Shown here one piece after another: positions 2,666-11,261 of a stretch of 52,195 nucleotides of DNA. The notes below the pieces were generated by a model that did not search any database, was not told the DNA's origin, and saw only the letters and a list, made by a program, of their open reading frames with translations. The stretch is from NCBI GenBank assembly GCA_937952315.1, contig CALFZX010000050.1, positions 1 to 52,195 on the forward strand. Reading direction: 5' to 3'. Within the stretch, counting starts at the first letter, position 1; each line of letters opens with the position of its first letter. This DNA comes from an uncultured bacterium (GTDB taxonomy: Bacteria; Patescibacteriota; Minisyncoccia; CAIUEV01). The translations under genes were made by a program, and so were the position numbers.

Positions 2666-5366
2666 TTTCTAAAGATAAATTGGGATTATAGTAAGGGTCG
2701 TTTTTTATCAGTCTAAGCCATTTTTTTCTAAAATAATTTGGTTCCGCTGGGTCGTCATTATCTGTCCCTCGACTTAAGCTTTCGTGATGGAGGAGTAGGA
2801 TCTCCGGATTCCAAACTATTCTATAGCCAAGAGCGCCTAATTTTAGACAGTAGTCAACATCATTGAAGGCAACGGCCAGATTTTTTTCATCAAAACCATT
2901 GACTTTTTCGAAGAGACTCTTTCTAGTTAACATACAAGCGGCAGTTACGGCGGAATAATTTCTCATAATCAGATTGTAATTTTGGTAACCTCCGTCACTG
3001 ACGTCAATAAATTTGTTGGCGTGGCTAGCTGTTAAATAGCTCATACCTAGAATGACGCCTCCGTGCTGTACTCGGCGATCATCGTAAATAAGTTTTGCTC
3101 CCACGGCTCCAATTTTTTTATCTAGAGAGATCGTTCCCACCATCTCTGTCAACCAATGACTATTTAAGACTTCAACATCGTTGTTCATAAAAACAATGAA
3201 TTCGTTGCTTGTTTGGCTAACGGCAAAATTATTAATTTTTGAAAAATTGAATTTCTTGGTAGGAAAGTCTATGTAGTTGATTCTGTTTCTCTTTAAATAA
3301 TCAAATGTTTCTTTTTTTTCGCTGTTATTGTTTATTATCAACAATTCGTAATTTTTGTAATCAGTTTTTTGTCTAATGCTTTTGATACATTTGCTTAATA
3401 ATCTCACGTTATCTTTAGTGGGGATGATTATAGTAACTTTTTCGGAAAAATTATCTTGATCAAATTTTATTCGGTAGTAGTTTTCAATCATTTTTGATTG
3501 AATAAAACTAGGGACACCAGCTCTACCATTTATTTTTCTTCTCTCTATAGATCTTTTTAGAGCCAACCTTCCATTGATAAGAGATATTTCTTTCCGGGTG
3601 ATTGAATTTTCTAAAGATCTGACAGGGAATCTTTTGTGATAAAGGGCTCTCGGTATGTGGGATATTTTGTCTGTTTTTTCGGCTATTCTCAACATAAGAT
3701 CGTATTCTTCAGCCCCCTTAAACTTATTTTTGTAACCCTTGACATCCTCAATTATTTTCCTGGAGATAAACTTTATTTTGCCTGTGTACTCATTAGAAAT
3801 TATAAGTTCCGGGCTCCAATCGGGCTTAAATTTTGGATCAAATTTCTTGCTGTTTTCGTCTATCAAATCTTCGTCACTGTAAATAACATCGGGTTTGTTT
3901 TTTTCATTTATCTTTTTAGCAAATTCATAAAGGGTGTCTGTATCAAGTTCATCATTAGCGCCCACTAAGGCGAAATAATCACCTCGAGAAGTTTTTACTA
4001 TCTGATCAAAACAAGTAAAAATATTTTTTGCTTTTTCAGAATCAAAGATTCTAATTCTTTTGTCTTTAATTGCAAACTGATTGATTATTTTTTGAATAAT
4101 TTTTTTCTTCTTGGCTCTGTTCACTAAAAACAACTCCCATTTTGGGTAAGATTGGTTTAGTATGGAAAAAATATTTTTTCTTAAAAAAATTTCACTTGGA
4201 AAGTTAATATCCAAGATGATTGAAAATTTAGGCTTAAAGTTAAAACTTTCTATTTTCTTATTTTTCGCATGACGAATCGCAAGGTCTTTTTTCAAGACTA
4301 ATTTTTCGTAAACATTTTCGGAAGGAGATTTCTGCAAAAAATATTCCTTACCATGAGTAATATATTTCGGTATGCACCACAAAAACCTTCTCAGCCCCTT
4401 TTCCCTGAGTACTCTGAAAGCTTCTTTTTGCATATTTAATATATTTTTCGGTCTTAGCTGCTTAGTCTTTAAATATCTTTCTCTGAGTCTCCAAAATTTT
4501 GAATTTTTAATTAATTCGATTTCCCCCGATAGTCTGTTTGTCTTGGAATCCAATAACTCTATTTGTTCATCTTTCTCCGCTATTATGTCTTTGTCTAAAA
4601 TTAATTTTTCTTTTTGAGATTCTATTATTTTTTCCAGCCTTGAAATATTTTTTGTTTGTTCTGTCAAGGCTTCCTTCTTAATGAAAATATGCATCCTTTT
4701 TGAATCCTCACTTAAAAAAGAATATTTTCTCTGTTTTTCTTTTTCATTTTGAAATAATTCTATATATTTTGTTCTTTTTAGAAACAAAACTCCCAGCCCA
4801 AAAGAATGGTGAAATTCAATGCCGTCGTATTTTTTTCTTAATTCCTCCCAAAGTTTGTAGACGCCAAAATCTCCCTTGCTGACAAAAATATCGTGAAACA
4901 TTATGGCTCCGTCTTCTTCAACTTTTGGCAACCAAGTCTCAAAATCGTGTTTAACAGCTTCGTAAGTGTGAAGGCCGTCAATATGCAACAGATCTATTGA
5001 TTTATCCTTAAACTCTGAAACGGCTTCATCAAAAGTTTTTCTGAGTAAATTTATCTTTATTTTCGGATAAAAAGTTTCTTTAATTTTTTTCACTTCATCA
5101 AAAATTTCTTCTCCATAAAAACCGGCGTGCTCCTCTCCTTGCCAGGTGTCAACGGCGGAGATTTCTATATCCAGCTCTCCATCCTTGGCTGCTTGAGCGA
5201 AAGACCAAAGAGAAGTGCCTTTGTGAGTTCCCAACTCAACAATAGTCTTCGGTTTGAAATTGCGGACGAAATCGTAGGCGAAATTTTTGTGGCCGCTCCA
5301 CGGCCAACCGGTATCTTGGAAAATCGCTTCGTACTCGAATTTTGGATCGTAATGTTTAAAAGACAT
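2637..5366 (-). CDS. Multidomain glycan synthase: N-terminal class I SAM methyltransferase (CmcI/Methyltransf_24-like), coiled coil, two tandem GT2 domains
   Basis: 909 aa.
- aa 1-200: VELGTHKGTSLWSF...LLHIDGLHTYEAV, methyltransferase-like.
- aa ~205-300: heptad-rich and charged (EKIIESQKEKLILDKDIIAEKDEQIELLDSK).
- aa ~385-640: first GT2 domain (FSIILDI...NQSYPKWELFLVN...SDED).
- aa ~650-909: second GT2 domain (VTIIIPTKDN...FMNNDVEV...FNDVDYCLK). Confidence 0.75.
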   Translation of the reverse strand: MSFKHYDPKFEYEAIFQDTGWPWSGHKNFAYDFVRNFKPKTIVELGTHKGTSLWSFAQAAKDGELDIEISAVDTWQGEEHAGFYGEEIFDEVKKIKETFYPKIKINLLRKTFDEAVSEFKDKSIDLLHIDGLHTYEAVKHDFETWLPKVEEDGAIMFHDIFVSKGDFGVYKLWEELRKKYDGIEFHHSFGLGVLFLKRTKYIELFQNEKEKQRKYSFLSEDSKRMHIFIKKEALTEQTKNISRLEKIIESQKEKLILDKDIIAEKDEQIELLDSKTNRLSGEIELIKNSKFWRLRERYLKTKQLRPKNILNMQKEAFRVLREKGLRRFLWCIPKYITHGKEYFLQKSPSENVYEKLVLKKDLAIRHAKNKKIESFNFKPKFSIILDINFPSEIFLRKNIFSILNQSYPKWELFLVNRAKKKKIIQKIINQFAIKDKRIRIFDSEKAKNIFTCFDQIVKTSRGDYFALVGANDELDTDTLYEFAKKINEKNKPDVIYSDEDLIDENSKKFDPKFKPDWSPELIISNEYTGKIKFISRKIIEDVKGYKNKFKGAEEYDLMLRIAEKTDKISHIPRALYHKRFPVRSLENSITRKEISLINGRLALKRSIERRKINGRAGVPSFIQSKMIENYYRIKFDQDNFSEKVTIIIPTKDNVRLLSKCIKSIRQKTDYKNYELLIINNNSEKKETFDYLKRNRINYIDFPTKKFNFSKINNFAVSQTSNEFIVFMNNDVEVLNSHWLTEMVGTISLDKKIGAVGAKLIYDDRRVQHGGVILGMSYLTASHANKFIDVSDGGYQNYNLIMRNYSAVTAACMLTRKSLFEKVNGFDEKNLAVAFNDVDYCLKLGALGYRIVWNPEILLLHHESLSRGTDNDDPAEPNYFRKKWLRLIKNDPYYNPNLSLENEQFKIAKK

Positions 5367-6045: not shown

Positions 6046-7383
6046 CTATGTCCAATTATATTTTAAATTAATTATTCCTTGGTTTTTATCTAAAGAAACC
6101 ATTCTGAAGCCTTTTGATTTGGTAAGAAAATCATAAGTGGCAGAAACATTTTTCCCCCAAATACCAGATTGAATATAGTACGAATTGGTTTTGAGGGGCA
6201 TTTTTTCGTATTTAACTTCAATAAATCCTCTTTTAACAAAATTATTGGTATTAACTCGGTCTATAAAGGTGTTTATACCAAAGCAGTAAGTTCCCTCTTG
6301 ACTGTAAATTGCCACCCCAAAGTTTAATTCACCTTTAAAATCTTTTCTTTGTTTAAAGTACACCCTGACCGTCAGATCCTCTCCCGTCCGAAATACATTC
6401 TTCACTTTACCGTTTTTGTCGAGGAATTCGACTTTGGTGATTTCGGCGATTTTGGGAGCTTGTCGGGACGGGTCGCGACCTGTCCGTGCATCGCGATCTG
6501 TCCGTGCGTCGGGGGGCGTATCGGTGGTGTCGGTAGGGGCGTATTGCAATACGCCCGTACGAGAAAGAGACGCATGCAATGCGTCTCTACGTTCCGCCGC
6601 AATGCGTTTGCGTTTTTCTTCGTTGAATAATCTTTTCTCCTCGTCGGACATGTTTTGATAGATGTATTTGTTGCCCACTTTTTCCGGGTCGCCGATCATG
6701 ACCACTTTGCCGGAACGGAGGAGCAGCGCGCGGTCGCAGTAGCGTTGGACGGTGGCGATGTCGTGGGTGACGAGGATAACCGTCTTGCCCATTTCCTTGT
6801 ACTTATTAAACTCCTCCATGCACTTCGACTGAAAATTACTGTCGCCGACGGCCAAAACCTCGTCCATGAGGAGGATGTCTCGATTGGCGTGGATGGCCAC
6901 GGAGAAGGCGAGCCTGACTTGCATGCCGGAGGAATAGTTCTTGACTTTTTGATCAATAAATCTTCTCAGCTCGGAAAAGGCGACGATGTCGTCAAATTTT
7001 TCTTTGATTTGTTTAGTGGATAATCCCAATACAGAGGCGTTCAAGAAAATATTATCGCGACCGGAAAGTTCTGGATTGAAGCCGATGCCCAGCTCGAGAA
7101 AGGGAGAAATTAGACCGTTGATTTGGACTTTACCGCTGTCGGGTGTGTAGATGCTGGCCAGAATCTTCAATAAAGTCGATTTGCCGGAGCCGTTTCTTCC
7201 GATGATGCCGAAGAACTCCCCCTTTTTTACTTCAAAGGAAACATTGTCAAGAGCTTTAAACTCATCCACTCCTTTGTTTCGCAAAGCATTGACAAAAGCA
7301 CCCCTTAAAGTGGAAATTTTTTCCTTGGGGATTTTGAAAGTCTTGCTGACATTCTGAACGGCAATGGCAATATTTTTACTCAT
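6046..7383 (-). CDS. wzt: Polysaccharide/O-antigen ABC exporter ATP-binding protein (Wzt/TagH type) with C-terminal Wzt_C-like beta-sandwich domain
   Basis: 445 aa. It has Walker A GRNGSGKST, signature YSSGMQVRL, Walker B ILLMDE and H-loop VTHD. A further ~145-aa C-terminal domain (EITKVEFLDKNG...LTVRVYF...FGVAIYS) resembles the Wzt carbohydrate-binding domain. Confidence 0.85.
   Translation of the reverse strand: MSKNIAIAVQNVSKTFKIPKEKISTLRGAFVNALRNKGVDEFKALDNVSFEVKKGEFFGIIGRNGSGKSTLLKILASIYTPDSGKVQINGLISPFLELGIGFNPELSGRDNIFLNASVLGLSTKQIKEKFDDIVAFSELRRFIDQKVKNYSSGMQVRLAFSVAIHANRDILLMDEVLAVGDSNFQSKCMEEFNKYKEMGKTVILVTHDIATVQRYCDRALLLRSGKVVMIGDPEKVGNKYIYQNMSDEEKRLFNEEKRKRIAAERRDALHASLSRTGVLQYAPTDTTDTPPDARTDRDARTGRDPSRQAPKIAEITKVEFLDKNGKVKNVFRTGEDLTVRVYFKQRKDFKGELNFGVAIYSQEGTYCFGINTFIDRVNTNNFVKRGFIEVKYEKMPLKTNSYYIQSGIWGKNVSATYDFLTKSKGFRMVSLDKNQGIINLKYNWT
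6460..6612. repeat. GC-rich palindromic element embedded in frame in the wzt linker
   Basis: It contains a 20-bp perfect palindrome, gggcgtattgcaatacgccc (6537-6556). It also contains a hairpin, agagacgcat-gca-atgcgtctct (6566-6588), and the direct repeat ctgtccgtgc x2. By hand count, GC is 41/60 for 6481-6540 versus 17/60 for flanking 6301-6360. The same motif pair, in the same order, recurs at 20591-20650. Confidence 0.7.
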
Positions 7384-7427
7384 AAAAAAAACATAGCCGA
7401 TTTTTTTGGATTGTGAAAAAAATTTAC
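7368..7427. repeat. Direct repeat copy A (wzt promoter + first 5 codons; the functional copy)
   Basis: The sequence is caatatttttactcataaaaaaaacatagccgatttttttggattgtgaaaaaaatttac. It is near-identical to 9130-9188 and 10695-10753. Confidence 0.9.
7390..7417 (-). promoter_or_regulatory. Candidate sigma70-type promoter of wzt, present in all three repeat copies
   Basis: On the minus strand it reads TTCACA, a 16-nt spacer, then TATGTT, with 6 nt between the -10 box and the ATG. That geometry implies a leaderless or nearly leaderless mRNA. There is no Shine-Dalgarno between the -10 box and the ATG. Confidence 0.35.
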
Positions 7428-7970: not shown

Positions 7971-8041
7971 AGAATCGATTTTTCAGGATAAAATAAAAAC
8001 CCGCCCTTATTAAAAAATAGGAGCGGGGAGCTAAGATAAAC

Positions 8042-8689
8042 TTATTTTATCCGTTTATTTTTCTCTAAGCAAACTTGATTTTTCATATTCCACCAAAGAT
8101 ATTTGGCACAATAGGAAAACTCTTTTGAAGAATCGCTCGACAAGACTTTTTGCATGTTTTTGAAAAAGAAATCTTTTGATTTTTCTGAAGATTTTTGGGC
8201 AGTATTTTCCTTAATTAGAGAAATTACAACCTGATTGGAAGGCTCTAAAAAAAGTTTAGCTATTTTATCTTCTGAAGGTCTTGATATTTTGTGCTCATCG
8301 TAACAGAAAATAAAATCTTTCAGGTATCCGATGTACGAAAGAGTTCCTCTTTTCACGCTTTCTTTGCCTAGTTTGCTAGCAGACTGACAAGAAAGAGCAT
8401 AAACCGTTTTGTTACTTAAAGTTTTTTCGTTTTTTCCAACTTTAACTAAAAATTTATTATTATATCCACAGATCATATCTTCTCTGCCATGACCATTCAC
8501 AAAAATAAGGCCGGGGTTGTGTTTTTTTATCCTACTTTCAAATTCCTTCCTGTTAGCTTTCTCTTTTTTTAAATCAAAAACTCTGAAACATTTCTTCTCA
8601 GCCAAAAGCAGAATTTCTTTGGCCCAAGAGAACAAGTATCTTGTCGTGATGTCATGATTGGGGCGAGTAACCAAAATTGTTTTATCCAT
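8042..8689 (-). CDS. Predicted caspase-hemoglobinase-fold (CHAT/gingipain-like) cysteine protease, minimal 215-aa form
   Basis: The pattern alternates beta and alpha elements. His67 follows a hydrophobic strand (GLIFVNGHG; codon 8489-8491). Cys101 follows the next hydrophobic strand (TVYALSCQSAS; codon 8387-8389). The 34-residue His-Cys spacing and the LSxCQS motif resemble CHAT and gingipain catalytic dyads. The fold call is inference. Confidence 0.4.
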   Translation of the reverse strand: MDKTILVTRPNHDITTRYLFSWAKEILLLAEKKCFRVFDLKKEKANRKEFESRIKKHNPGLIFVNGHGREDMICGYNNKFLVKVGKNEKTLSNKTVYALSCQSASKLGKESVKRGTLSYIGYLKDFIFCYDEHKISRPSEDKIAKLFLEPSNQVVISLIKENTAQKSSEKSKDFFFKNMQKVLSSDSSKEFSYCAKYLWWNMKNQVCLEKNKRIK

Positions 8690-8906
8690 AAATAGCTCCT
8701 TTTTTTAAGGCTTGTAGGAATTCCATATCGATTTCGACTATTTTTTCACCAATGCTATCTTTTTTATCCACATGTTTTTTTAGCTCTTCTTTTGAAAAAG
8801 AGCCTTTCGATCCGATGGAGATTTTGATATTTCTTGGTAGAACATCCAGTCTGGCTTTGACCAAATTTCTGATGTCCTCATTTTCTATGTAGCTAATTTT
8901 TGGCAT
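8682..8906 (-). CDS. Hypothetical 74-aa protein (middle gene of 3-gene operon)
   Basis: I recognise no motif. Its stop overlaps the downstream start by 8 nt, and only 8 nt separate it from the upstream gene. Confidence 0.5.
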   Translation of the reverse strand: MPKISYIENEDIRNLVKARLDVLPRNIKISIGSKGSFSKEELKKHVDKKDSIGEKIVEIDMEFLQALKKGAIYG

Positions 8907-8914
8907 AATAAAAA

Positions 8915-9097
8915 TTAAATAATTTTTAAATCACTTAATTTCTTAATAATTTTATTTCCAAGTTCAGTCTCGTTGTTTATTTCAATAAAAGCTACATTCC
9001 AAGTTATCGGACCGCATTCTTCAAGAACAAGAATTATTTCTTCGCGAAGGCTGATCGGCAAATTAGAGTAGACCTTTAAGAACTTCTCCTTTTTCAT
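8915..9097 (-). CDS. Hypothetical 60-aa protein, possibly a small winged-helix/HTH-like protein (first gene of 3-gene operon)
   Basis: The sequence is helical and amphipathic (LPISLREEIILVLEECGPITWNVAFIEI...LGNKIIKKLSDL). It sits 33 nt downstream of repeat copy B, which carries the promoter. Confidence 0.4.
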   Translation of the reverse strand: MKKEKFLKVYSNLPISLREEIILVLEECGPITWNVAFIEINNETELGNKIIKKLSDLKII

Positions 9098-9111
9098 ACT
9101 TTTATCTAATT

Positions 9112-9188
9112 CGTTTATTATCTAAAAGTCAATATTTTTACTCATAGAAAAACATAGCCGATTTTTTTGGATTGTGAAAAAAATTTAC
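9112..9188. repeat. Direct repeat copy B (core 9130-9188 plus 18-bp extension shared only with copy C)
   Basis: The core differs from copy A by one substitution and one A deletion in the A-run. The extension cgtttattatctaaaagt matches 10677-10694 with 1 mismatch. The copy encodes the relic mini-ORF ATGAGTAAAAATATTGACTTTTAG (MSKNIDF*). Confidence 0.9.
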
Positions 9189-9249: not shown

Positions 9250-10638
9250 TTATTGAAGTATCTTCCAGTAGCCGCCCTTGTCCGGGCCGACACGTTCAAT
9301 CAGACCATTGCCCTTTAATTTGACAATATTTCTTTTAATTGTCTTTTCGTTGACATTCAGTTTGTCGGCTATTTCGGGAATCGTTATTTTGTTGTTATTT
9401 CTAATCATTTTAATGATGAGAGAGCTTCTGTTTTCAGGGACATTTTCAGGGACATTTTCAGGGACATTTTCAGGGACATTGTGAATAATCACATCAAAAC
9501 CACTCGCTACTTCATTTATTTCCGGCTCGGGCAAGCCGTATTCTTTTATTTGGTCGATTGCTCTCTTGACTCCACTTCCGTACCTTTCGATTAAGCCGCA
9601 ATCACGAAAAATTTCAGCAATAGACTTATTTCTAGGAAAAGATTTTTTGTTACCTCTCTTTATGTCTTCCAATGTCAGTCCTTGAGGGATTTCTCCTACA
9701 TTCCAAAAGACAATTTTATTGGGGTAAATTTTAAATTGTGAATGAGTGCCGTTCCGATAGTCTCGATGAATAATTGCGTTAACAACAATTTCTCGCAGAG
9801 CTTCAATGGGGTACTGCCAACGCTCTTCCCTTCTTGGGTTACCGGTAAAAATATATTCCTTTAAAATATAGCTTTTGATAAAATCTAAAACTTCCTCAAC
9901 TTCCGTAACTAGGTCTTTTCTTATTATTTTATTTTTTTTAATGATAGTGTCGGTTTGGAAAAGTCCAACTTGAATGTCTGTTTGACGAAGAGGACTTTTT
10001 GAAAAGAGAAGTAGGCTGGCAAAAGTAGGATATTCTTTGTCGCTATCTTCGGTGATGAGAGAATATTTACGCAAAAAACTTAAATTATCACCTAATTTAG
10101 TTTCTAAATTTTCTTCAATCAAATTTTTTATTTTGAATATTTTTTCTTGATCAAGATCGTCCAAATTTGCTTCTTTGTCTGGATAGAAATCCCAACTGGA
10201 ATTTTTTGTTCTTAAATACATATCGGCGACTTCCTGCAAAGATAGAGTGTGGTTACTGTTGTTTTTTCTGATAAAATAGCGATTTTTAAAAGACACTGGT
10301 TTTAGGGGAAATTCGGTTACTTCTAAAACGATCAAATTTTTTTGGTCAATTGTTATTTTTTGAATATCGACATTGAGTCGGGGGTGTGTTTTATTCTTTA
10401 TTTCGTTAGCCCATTTTGAAAGGCTTTCTTTCCCGACGGTAATTCCTTTAATTAATTTTTGGTCGTTAACTCCCAAAATCACTTGCCCACCTTTTTGATT
10501 TGAGAAAGCAACCAAGGTTTCAATAACCGTATCGTTGAATTTTTCCTTAAATTCAATATTGTAGCCTTCCCCCCGATCTATGATTAATTGTAGATCTTTT
10601 TTATTGAGCATAAGAGTGCTTAAAATTATATTTTCCAC
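9250..10638 (-). CDS. AlbA_2 (Schlafen-like, 'AAA_4') + HATPase_c_4 + C-terminal winged-HTH protein; this type is often mis-annotated as RecG-like or as a transcriptional regulator
   Basis: 462 aa. The N-terminus GEGYNIEFKEKF...LVAFSNQKGGQVILGV is the AlbA_2 signature. The middle region ALREIVVNAIIHRDYRN...PRNKSIAEIFRDCGLIERYGSGV is HATPase_c_4. The C-terminus ITIPEIADKLNVNEKTIKRNIVKLKGNGLIERVG is a wHTH. It uses a GTG start. Confidence 0.7.
   Translation of the reverse strand: MENIILSTLMLNKKDLQLIIDRGEGYNIEFKEKFNDTVIETLVAFSNQKGGQVILGVNDQKLIKGITVGKESLSKWANEIKNKTHPRLNVDIQKITIDQKNLIVLEVTEFPLKPVSFKNRYFIRKNNSNHTLSLQEVADMYLRTKNSSWDFYPDKEANLDDLDQEKIFKIKNLIEENLETKLGDNLSFLRKYSLITEDSDKEYPTFASLLLFSKSPLRQTDIQVGLFQTDTIIKKNKIIRKDLVTEVEEVLDFIKSYILKEYIFTGNPRREERWQYPIEALREIVVNAIIHRDYRNGTHSQFKIYPNKIVFWNVGEIPQGLTLEDIKRGNKKSFPRNKSIAEIFRDCGLIERYGSGVKRAIDQIKEYGLPEPEINEVASGFDVIIHNVPENVPENVPENVPENRSSLIIKMIRNNNKITIPEIADKLNVNEKTIKRNIVKLKGNGLIERVGPDKGGYWKILQ
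9431..9478 (-). repeat. Perfect 12-bp tandem repeat x4 inside the AlbA_2 gene
   Basis: ttttcagggaca occurs 4 times and encodes (NVPE)x4 in the linker between HATPase_c_4 and the wHTH. Confidence 0.95.
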
Positions 10639-10676
10639 AGAGAGGAGAGTTTTTATTTTACTATTTTTATGAAAGC

Positions 10677-10753
10677 CGTTTATTACCTAAAAGTCAATAT
10701 TTTTACTCATAAAAAAAACATAGCCGATTTTTTTGGATTGTGAAAAAAATTTT
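10677..10753. repeat. Direct repeat copy C (extension + core)
   Basis: The core is identical to copy A through gtgaaaaaaattt. It carries the same MSKNIDF* relic as copy B and abuts the stop of the 169-aa membrane protein gene. Confidence 0.9.
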
Positions 10754-11261
10754 ATGATTTTTTATTGCTTAGAAAAAACCACATCAAGATCCCGATCGTC
10801 CAAAAGGGGATGACGCCGAGGACGGGCATAATCTCCAAAATAAAACTAAAAAAAATGATGCCGATCGAGAGCAATAAAGATCGGCCGAGCAGCGTCAGCA
10901 ATAAAAAGAACATAAAAAGCAGCGTGATATCCAGTGTCGGAGCGAGTAAATCGGCCTTTTGCCAAAAAACCAAATCCAGAAAATCATTGACCACCGAAAG
11001 AGAAAGACCGAGGATGAGAACAAAAAGTAAATTCTCTCGAGAATTGAAAAAAGAATTTTCGAGCGAGCGGTTTGATTTATTTGTCTTATCTCCCGATCCG
11101 TGAATGGTGGTTTTATGATCGACTGGAGCCTCTCTGCTCAACTCGGCCTGAATTTTTCGCCGGGATCTTTCAACGGCTAATCGTTGTTGAATGATTTCCG
11201 TTTCAACTTCTCCTCGGGCTTGAACAGAGTTTTGAGATTCGAACTGATTTTCTGAGGGCAT
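10752..11261 (-). CDS. Hypothetical membrane protein (charged N-terminus, ~3 TM helices)
   Basis: 169 aa with a hydrophobic C-terminal half. I recognise no family. Confidence 0.5.
   Translation of the reverse strand: MPSENQFESQNSVQARGEVETEIIQQRLAVERSRRKIQAELSREAPVDHKTTIHGSGDKTNKSNRSLENSFFNSRENLLFVLILGLSLSVVNDFLDLVFWQKADLLAPTLDITLLFMFFLLLTLLGRSLLLSIGIIFFSFILEIMPVLGVIPFWTIGILMWFFLSNKKS

Follow-up and report, generated by a model that had tools for sequence, protein, structure and literature searches.

The closest described relatives of the system reported here are proteases of clan CD, in which, as a hallmark, a His-Gly pair ends one hydrophobic strand and the Cys ends the next. The best structural match is to the CHAT proteases of type III CRISPR systems (SAVED-CHAT, PDB 8tl0; TPR-CHAT/Csx29 in Craspase, PDB 8d9g), which are protease effectors in prokaryotic conflict systems. 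Here, we describe three adjacent genes (A, B, and C, together “the trio”) in a stretch of 52,195 nt from an uncultured bacterium of the Patescibacteriota (Minisyncoccia, CAIUEV01; assembly GCA_937952315.1, contig CALFZX010000050.1, positions 1 to 52,195, forward strand). We refer to this whole stretch as the window. Bacteria and archaea alike have conserved the trio as a unit, and at its center is protein C, which has 215 amino acids (aa) and is modeled as a caspase-fold protease. Taken together, the trio represents a protease module of caspase fold whose architecture and partner families are new and whose host range is unusual.

Protein C and the CHAT proteases have in common the clan CD fold and the His...Cys order, and by analogy C may also be an effector. 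However, C is far shorter (215 aa vs. >470 aa for CHAT proteases) and, unlike them, it lacks a SAVED, TPR, or other sensor domain and instead has two micro-protein partners. Also unlike CHAT systems, the trio has no CRISPR or cyclic-oligonucleotide genes nearby. Gingipain R (RgpB, family C25; PDB 1cvr, 4ief) has a clan CD catalytic domain with the equal-best TM-score to C (0.61), but it is a virulence protease that is secreted, has several domains, and carries a pro-domain, whereas C is single-domain and apparently cytoplasmic; the two are not similar in sequence (about 10% identity). Caspases, metacaspases, and orthocaspases (family C14) have the fold and dyad seen in C, with lower TM-scores to it (0.40–0.44). 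Where caspases have a p10-type subunit, C has in its C-terminal half a bundle of helices and then a final strand, and there is no sign for C of the inter-subunit cleavage by which caspases are activated.

In operon layout, the nearest counterparts are the tripartite toxin-antitoxin operons (omega-epsilon-zeta; paaR-paaA-parE), in which the gene order is small, small, larger. The trio resembles these operons in this order, in its tight coupling, in being patchy and mobile, and in the occasional decay of its largest gene. In contrast, the toxins of the tripartite operons are kinases or ParE-type gyrase poisons, whereas C has a protease fold, and profile searches with A and B, along with a fold comparison for B, revealed no similarity to omega (a ribbon-helix-helix [RHH] protein), epsilon, or any known antitoxin. 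Bacterial gasdermin operons are also similar in layout, being short operons in which a clan CD protease lies beside the protein that it acts on. Unlike these, the trio includes no gasdermin or pore-former, and its partner proteins are hydrophilic and have only 60 and 74 aa.

Three coupled genes conserved as a unit in bacteria and archaea

The three genes of the window are as follows:

8915-9097, minus strand: gene A, 60 aa, first of the trio
8682-8906, minus strand: gene B, 74 aa, middle of the trio
8042-8689, minus strand: gene C, 215 aa, last of the trio

Genes A and B are separated by an 8-nt gap (8907-8914), B and C overlap by 8 nt (8682-8689), and the ribosome-binding site of C (AAGGAG) is within the 3′ end of B. 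An initial annotation, made by a model from the window sequence alone, had described three minus-strand genes of these sizes and spacings, placed directly behind a duplicated promoter copy. The open reading frame (ORF) coordinates agree with this, and the promoter copy in question (repeat copy B, see below) is indeed directly upstream of gene A.

Given that hundreds to thousands of homologs exist for A, B, and C at E<1e-20, these are not chance ORFs. For C, a word-indexed search yielded 166 matches, and an exhaustive search of 50%-identity representatives yielded at least 1,158 clusters at E<=0.001 (549 at E<=1e-10). Among 150 C homologs listed, nearly all are stand-alone proteins of about 200–220 aa, and about 20 shorter ones are fragment-like. 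The named carriers are candidate phyla radiation (CPR, Patescibacteria) lineages and DPANN archaea.

In all seven metagenomic loci recovered by exact-protein look-up, which include both bacterial and archaeal sequences, the genes occur in the order A-B-C, and adjacent genes lie anywhere between 1 nt apart and overlapping by 32 nt. We also scanned GTDB (one genome per species) using a 10-sequence alignment of C. This pattern-limited scan recovered 64 loci with C, and the 64 species should be taken as a floor and not as a prevalence. Immediately upstream of C, hidden Markov model matches to both A and B were found in about 59 of the 64 loci. The loci lacking the full trio comprise three at contig ends (L038, L070, L072), a truncated solo C (L058), and a deletion remnant (L071). 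Bacterial carriers are Kuenen-, Morani-, Pacei-, Shapiro-, Levy-, Davies-, Gottesman-, and Woykebacteria, Microgenomates, and Saccharibacteria (the last with L021 and L024), and archaeal carriers are Woese-, Pace-, Nano-, Nanohal-, and Altiarchaeota. Pairwise distances of the three proteins correlate across loci (r = 0.71, 0.63, and 0.58) and, by this measure, A, B, and C co-evolve.

A neighbor-joining tree of C is divided into a large clade of DPANN sequences and one of CPR sequences. A subclade of five archaeal loci is nested among the bacterial sequences, and this placement implies at least one inter-domain transfer.

The taxonomic labels of some records deserve comment. Several metagenome-assembled genome (MAG) records that carry the cassette are titled “uncultured Gammaproteobacteria” or “Pseudomonadales” (L026, L028, L029, L032, L034, L037, L053, L069, L071), and one is titled “Methanosarcinales” (L072). 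Of those included in the tree of C, most fall inside CPR clades (e.g., L037 beside Daviesbacteria L031, and L032 beside Gottesmanbacteria L039), and L053 has a long branch to itself. The Gammaproteobacteria, Pseudomonadales, and Methanosarcinales labels of the deposited records are probably wrong.

Fold and active site of protein C

Protein C was modeled with AlphaFold2 from a 32-sequence alignment (predicted local distance difference test [pLDDT] 94.9, predicted TM-score [pTM] 0.91). The model has six core strands (residues 4-9, 36-41, 61-65, 95-99, 118-122, and 205-209) plus a hairpin. When it was compared with the PDB using Foldseek, there were 13 matches at E<=0.001, and 13 of 13 are clan CD proteases (probability 0.99–1.00). 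The leading neighbors are SAVED-CHAT 8tl0 (E=7.6e-6, TMq 0.60), gingipain R (TMq 0.61), and caspase-11/-4, and further neighbors include caspase-1, separase, C11 clostripain-like proteases, GPI transamidase (GPI8, rank 27), and the Craspase CHAT domain. As modeled, C has the alpha/beta/alpha caspase-hemoglobinase (clan CD) fold.

The putative active site is located where this fold would place it. His67 (codon 8491-8489, minus strand), in the motif GLIFVNGHG, directly follows strand beta3 (61-65), and Cys101 (codon 8389-8387, minus strand), in the motif VYALSCQS, directly follows strand beta4 (95-99). The order is that of clan CD, with LIFVNG-H67-G preceding VYALS-C101. We evaluated residue conservation using 248 full-length homologs, down to about 35% identity. 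His67 is conserved in 247 of these, Cys101 in all 248, and Asp141 in 245; Asn65, Gly66, Gly68, Gly75, and Asp141 are all >=97% conserved. His67 is the predicted catalytic histidine, and Cys101 the predicted nucleophile. The initial annotation had proposed a caspase-hemoglobinase fold with likeness to CHAT proteases and gingipain, had placed His67 in GLIFVNGHG and Cys101 at the end of the next strand, and had suggested a check of their conservation. All of this is borne out by the model, in which CHAT and gingipain are top matches, by the codon positions, and by the homolog counts.

Asp141 is in the loop after strand beta5. In gingipain R, an acidic S1 residue confers Arg specificity, and Asp141 could play that part in C. 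Combined with the presence of Arg-specific enzymes (gingipain R, separase) among the structural neighbors, this hints weakly at cleavage after a basic P1 residue.

It should be noted that sequence comparison alone does not link C to caspases. The hhalign probability for the C family vs. verified caspase-3 is 0.3%, which is not significant, and the sole alignment obtained, which places NGHGREDMICG on SHGEEGIIFG around the catalytic His121, serves as a consistency check only. As read off the sequence, the N-termini of the three proteins are not hydrophobic and none of the proteins contains a transmembrane segment, and thus the system is presumably cytoplasmic.

The initial annotation could not name a family or system for the trio, and database searches lead to the same place. 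Whether single sequences or family profiles were used as queries, A, B, and C had no match in Pfam, NCBIfam, PADLOC, PHROGs, or PDB sequences. For C, a Pfam search at E<=1 retrieved no CHAT domain (PF12770) and only an irrelevant Suc_Fer-like match (E=0.12). Assignment to peptidase families C14, C25, C11, and C13 fails, as there is no Pfam or NCBIfam profile match, and no PDB peptidase was found by sequence or family profile. By sequence profile, C is a new family inside clan CD that is outside CHAT, C14, C25, C11, and C13. In a full-text library of the literature that is itself incomplete, we found no account in which CPR or DPANN organisms encode a mini protease of clan CD as a stand-alone protein together with two micro-proteins.

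Micro-proteins A and B

Protein A is always encoded first in the cassette. Its invariant residues are F6, P14, R18, W33, E39, and L54, and it has no profile match in Pfam or the PDB. The A family comprises 1,716 clusters at 90% identity and the B family at least 606 clusters; in both, all members are annotated as hypothetical, without a Pfam domain.

The AlphaFold2 model of B (pLDDT 87) consists of a helix (10-21), a beta-hairpin (28-31/35-38), and two further helices (39-48 and 51-68). Foldseek retrieved no significant neighbor for this model (the best is prefoldin beta, E=0.57). Invariant residues of B are R19, S30, G32, G53, and G70. Asp50, in the exposed alpha2-alpha3 loop, is >=90% conserved, and the motif Asp50-x-x-Gly53 is well conserved; the invariant Gly70 is followed by a C-terminal tail that varies in length and sequence. 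Profiles of A and B have no match in Pfam or the PDB to the DNA-binding antitoxin classes (RHH, helix-turn-helix [HTH], AbrB, Phd/YefM).

Two other ideas about the micro-proteins were considered and rejected. B as an OmpR-type winged helix was indicated by a weak profile match (E=0.15), but the topology of the model and the Foldseek results (none below E=0.5) lend it no support. That A and B could be distant paralogs was a pattern seen by eye only, and the hhalign probability is 2.4%.

We sought natural A-B or B-C fusions among the homologs and found none, only B-B tandems. Two archaeal proteins are tandem fusions of this type. One Woesearchaeota contig (JAUXTV010000190.1; L073) carries an orphan B-B tandem gene (150 aa, P0271, at 2435-2887) without A or C, and its neighbors are defense-like (a Schlafen-group-3 helicase fragment, RadC, a YhcG/DUF1016 nuclease, and DUF3800). 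The orphan tandem suggests that B may work as a dimer and that it can act without C.

Genomic context, mobility, and decay

In the window, the trio is within a segment that is bracketed by repeats:

7989-8027, minus strand: terminator-like signal, a GC hairpin (8027-8000) and then a U-run
7363-7425, minus strand: repeat copy A, the native promoter and gene start of an ABC-ATPase gene and the right boundary of the segment with the trio and an RHH/RelE-like pair
9091-9186, minus strand: repeat copy B, immediately upstream of gene A, a duplicate of the ABC-ATPase promoter region
10656-10752, minus strand: repeat copy C, upstream of an AlbA_2 gene

The repeated segment is 58–95 nt long and is present three times in the window. 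The aligned copies have in common the promoter-like sequence TTCACA-16-TATGTT and ATGAGTAAAAATATTG, the five codons (MSKNI) with which the ABC-ATPase gene (6046-7383, minus strand) begins. By this alignment, the promoter and start native to this gene have been duplicated twice. One of the duplicated segments contains a gene for an AlbA_2/HATPase_c_4/HTH protein, and the other contains the trio and the RHH/RelE-like pair. In copy B, the promoter-like TTCACA-16-TATGTT is at 9178-9151 and a 7-codon remnant ORF, MSKNIDF*, is at 9145-9122; this copy is likely the promoter and 5′ untranslated region of the trio. Copies B and C also have in common an additional ~35-nt junction, with the remnant ORF MSKNIDF*, and this suggests two successive cassette insertions at one site. 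The arrangement suggests that the AlbA_2 segment and the segment with the trio and the RHH/RelE-like pair were inserted successively at the 5′ end of the ABC-ATPase gene, with the promoter and start regenerated each time. At the other end of the trio, the terminator-like hairpin (free energy −15.3 kcal/mol; z −2.4 vs. shuffles) is probably the operon end. It faces the RelE-like gene, which is convergent to the trio.

Elsewhere, the flanks of the cassette are variable. Among 69 loci, no fourth gene is conserved and no synteny is shared (at most 6 of the 69 have any one flank family in common), and no integrase or other element hallmark recurs beside the cassette. A minority of the 118 nearest neighbors are of defense, toxin-antitoxin, or mobile type, and conflict-type immediate neighbors include RadC, Fic, nucleotidyltransferases, DpnI, a type II restriction enzyme, and AbiEi. 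The initial annotation raised the prospect that the 60/74/215-aa trio would co-occur in other genomes and would be found in defense islands. The first part stands (7 of 7 and about 59 of 64 loci); as to the second, the neighborhoods are mixed and not consistently of defense type, and enrichment in defense islands is no more than a possibility. As in toxin-antitoxin modules, the operon is a short, co-directional, tightly coupled unit that recurs in varied contexts. No relative of the trio was found in 2.9 million IMG/VR viral contigs, 50,697 phage records (GenBank), 72,556 plasmids (PLSDB), or PHROGs.

In one Woesearchaeota MAG (CAYURQ010000001.1, 4877-11750; L050), the trio is part of a block that also encodes an antitoxin (56 aa), a RelE-like toxin (86 aa), and a small membrane protein. 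The block occurs in two copies that are 4,695 bp apart and 100% identical, and a ~53-nt segment is repeated at 3761, 4877, and 9572. The doubling may reflect a recent tandem duplication or else an artifact of assembly.

Gene C is disrupted in about 6 of the 64 GTDB loci (about 10%). The lesions comprise a premature stop (L033), frameshifts (L068, L069, L070), and N-terminal loss (L058, L064). In four of the loci with a broken C (L033, L064, L068, L069), A and B are intact. A truncation of C in L042 was rejected as an example of decay, as it is due to an assembly gap (a run of N).

Possible functions of the trio

As a working hypothesis, we consider that the trio has a defense or toxin role. 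More specifically, it may be an autonomous, horizontally mobile, tripartite toxin-antitoxin-like or defense module in which two micro-proteins restrain or regulate a protease effector, a reading that we favor over the others given below and regard as plausible, if still somewhat short of probable. The variable flanks, the nested archaeal subclade, the repeat-bracketed cassette of the window, the duplication in L050, and the broken C genes point to a module that is both mobile and dispensable. The gene structure, the fold, the conserved dyad, the strict co-occurrence and co-evolution of the three genes, their variable context, and the decay of C are established by the data, whereas proteolysis, toxicity, the roles of A and B, and any function in defense are inferred.

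In the proposed mechanism, A, B, and C would be transcribed as one unit. C would be a cytoplasmic, sensor-less cysteine endopeptidase that uses the predicted His67/Cys101 dyad, and it would act as the effector (toxin) that, once released, cuts cellular or invader proteins. B, probably dimeric, would be a co-translated inhibitor or decoy substrate that silences C, and A would be a small regulator or adaptor. The only hint of toxicity and its neutralization is indirect and comes from the four loci in which C is broken while A and B are intact. We also entertain a bolder and, in our view, doubtful version, in which the trio is a minimal caspase-based suicide or immunity system that is specific to CPR and DPANN episymbionts and exchanged between them. 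In this scenario, only two micro-proteins with new folds would restrain a sensor-less “proto-caspase,” and one of the two would sense infection or loss of the host cell.

Several points weigh against a toxin-antitoxin or defense role. Protease toxins are unusual in classical type II toxin-antitoxin systems, and B has no similarity to known antitoxins in model and profile comparisons. In PADLOC-DB v2, none of A, B, and C has a component match at E<=1. Many of the immediate neighbors are housekeeping genes (e.g., GAPDH, FtsZ, DNA ligase, UDP-glucose dehydrogenase, QueH). The tree of C is largely domain-coherent, a pattern that is also compatible with a useful cellular function that has long been inherited vertically. 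Finally, part of the broken C genes may be metagenome assembly errors.

Some of these observations would be expected if C were a housekeeping processing protease whose substrate is A, B, or a protein that they present, in a cellular function common to ultra-small episymbionts. The very broad, largely domain-coherent CPR/DPANN distribution would fit this explanation, as would the strict 1:1:1 gene stoichiometry with translational coupling and the housekeeping genes among many of the neighbors. There are also candidate cleavage sites, at Asp50-x-x-Gly53 in the exposed alpha2-alpha3 loop of B and at Arg18 of A. However, there is no conserved synteny with any pathway, C is broken in about 10% of copies, the segment is accessory and repeat-bracketed in the window and duplicated in L050, and inter-domain transfer is visible. 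Overall, we consider a processing role to be rather unlikely, though the likeliest of the rival readings.

The same variable flanks and repeat-bracketed cassette would also be consistent with an addiction or counter-defense module of an unrecognized CPR/DPANN mobile element or virus, which would serve the element and not the host. The tandem duplication in L050 would fit, and neighbors such as RadC, Fic, RhuM-like, restriction-modification, and reverse transcriptase genes and toxin-antitoxin pairs are typical of integrated elements. Yet the searches of IMG/VR, phage records, plasmids, and PHROGs retrieved no relatives, and no integrase or element hallmark recurs next to the cassette. We therefore view ownership by such an element as improbable.

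Clan CD also includes enzymes that join peptides (GPI8, legumain-type enzymes), and C could be a transpeptidase or ligase that tags target proteins with B or A. The Foldseek matches do include GPI transamidase (at rank 27), and the invariant Gly70 of B is followed by a variable C-terminal tail, but the GPI8 match is far weaker than those to CHAT, gingipain, and caspases, B does not have a beta-grasp or other known tag fold, and no E1/E2-like or other conjugation genes are nearby, making this option a distinctly poor prospect. Least probable by our estimate, and very much so, is that C has a caspase-like fold but is a non-peptidase (with other His/Cys chemistry, metal binding, or a scaffold function). 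In favor of this, no sequence profile ties C to a peptidase family, and hhalign gives no significant match to caspase-3. Against it, the invariant dyad is exactly at the clan CD catalytic positions (His-Gly after beta3, Cys after beta4), and the significant structural neighbors are all active proteases.

CPR bacteria and DPANN archaea account for a large share of microbial diversity, and they have tiny genomes with many unannotated genes and few recognizable defense systems. A survey of aquifer microbes raised the possibility that apparent defense poverty may reflect systems that are undetectable by present methods (PMC12259885). If the trio is a toxin-antitoxin or defense module, it adds a class with a protease effector and new micro-protein regulators and offers a minimal model for the silencing of caspase-type enzymes. 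If the minimal suicide or immunity scenario were true, the trio would be the simplest known caspase-type switch and a defense system that is invisible to current defense-finder tools. If it instead has a cellular function, it marks a proteolytic step common to episymbiotic bacteria and archaea. Either way, the trio is open to direct testing; A, B, and C are all small and soluble.

Neighboring genes in the window

The initial annotation had named a RelE pair and an AlbA_2/Schlafen-like gene next to the trio, and both have Pfam matches. The protein encoded by the AlbA_2/HATPase_c_4/HTH gene (9250-10638, minus strand) matches PF04326 (E=2e-22), and the RelE/YoeB-like protein matches PF06769 (E=7e-6, just short of the Pfam cut-off); the RHH partner of the latter has a weak match (E=0.003). 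The RelE pair was considered as a fourth component of the module and rejected, as a RelE-like gene occurs within 1 kb of the cassette in only 1 of 69 other loci (L050). The RelE pair and the AlbA_2 gene are accessory hot-spot neighbors and are outside the module.

In PADLOC, the AlbA_2 protein has further matches, to models of pAgo-associated and SIR2-associated Schlafen-type modules (E about 1e-18). Its gene contains, at ~9430-9490 (minus strand), a perfect four-fold VPEN tandem repeat (12-nt unit) between the ATPase-like and HTH parts. Directly upstream of repeat copy C is an ORF of 169 aa (10752-11261, minus strand) whose product is polar in its N-terminal half, is strongly hydrophobic in its C-terminal half, and has no Pfam match.

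The ABC-ATPase gene is otherwise AT-rich, but at 6450-6600 (minus strand) it contains a GC-rich, in-frame insert of ~150 nt. The GC content of a 1-kb interval around the insert is 0.44 vs. about 0.33 in the surroundings. The insert encodes a low-complexity stretch (…SRTGVLQYAPTDTTDTPPDARTDRDARTGRDPSRQ…) and includes near-perfect palindromes (6533-6560 and 6566-6588) and an 18-nt tandem repeat (6473-6508). In these features, it looks like a small palindromic mobile element that is tolerated within a coding region. A comparable GC-rich “ALTPGDA…” insert is found in a glycosyltransferase ORF of L028 (118-1341, minus strand).

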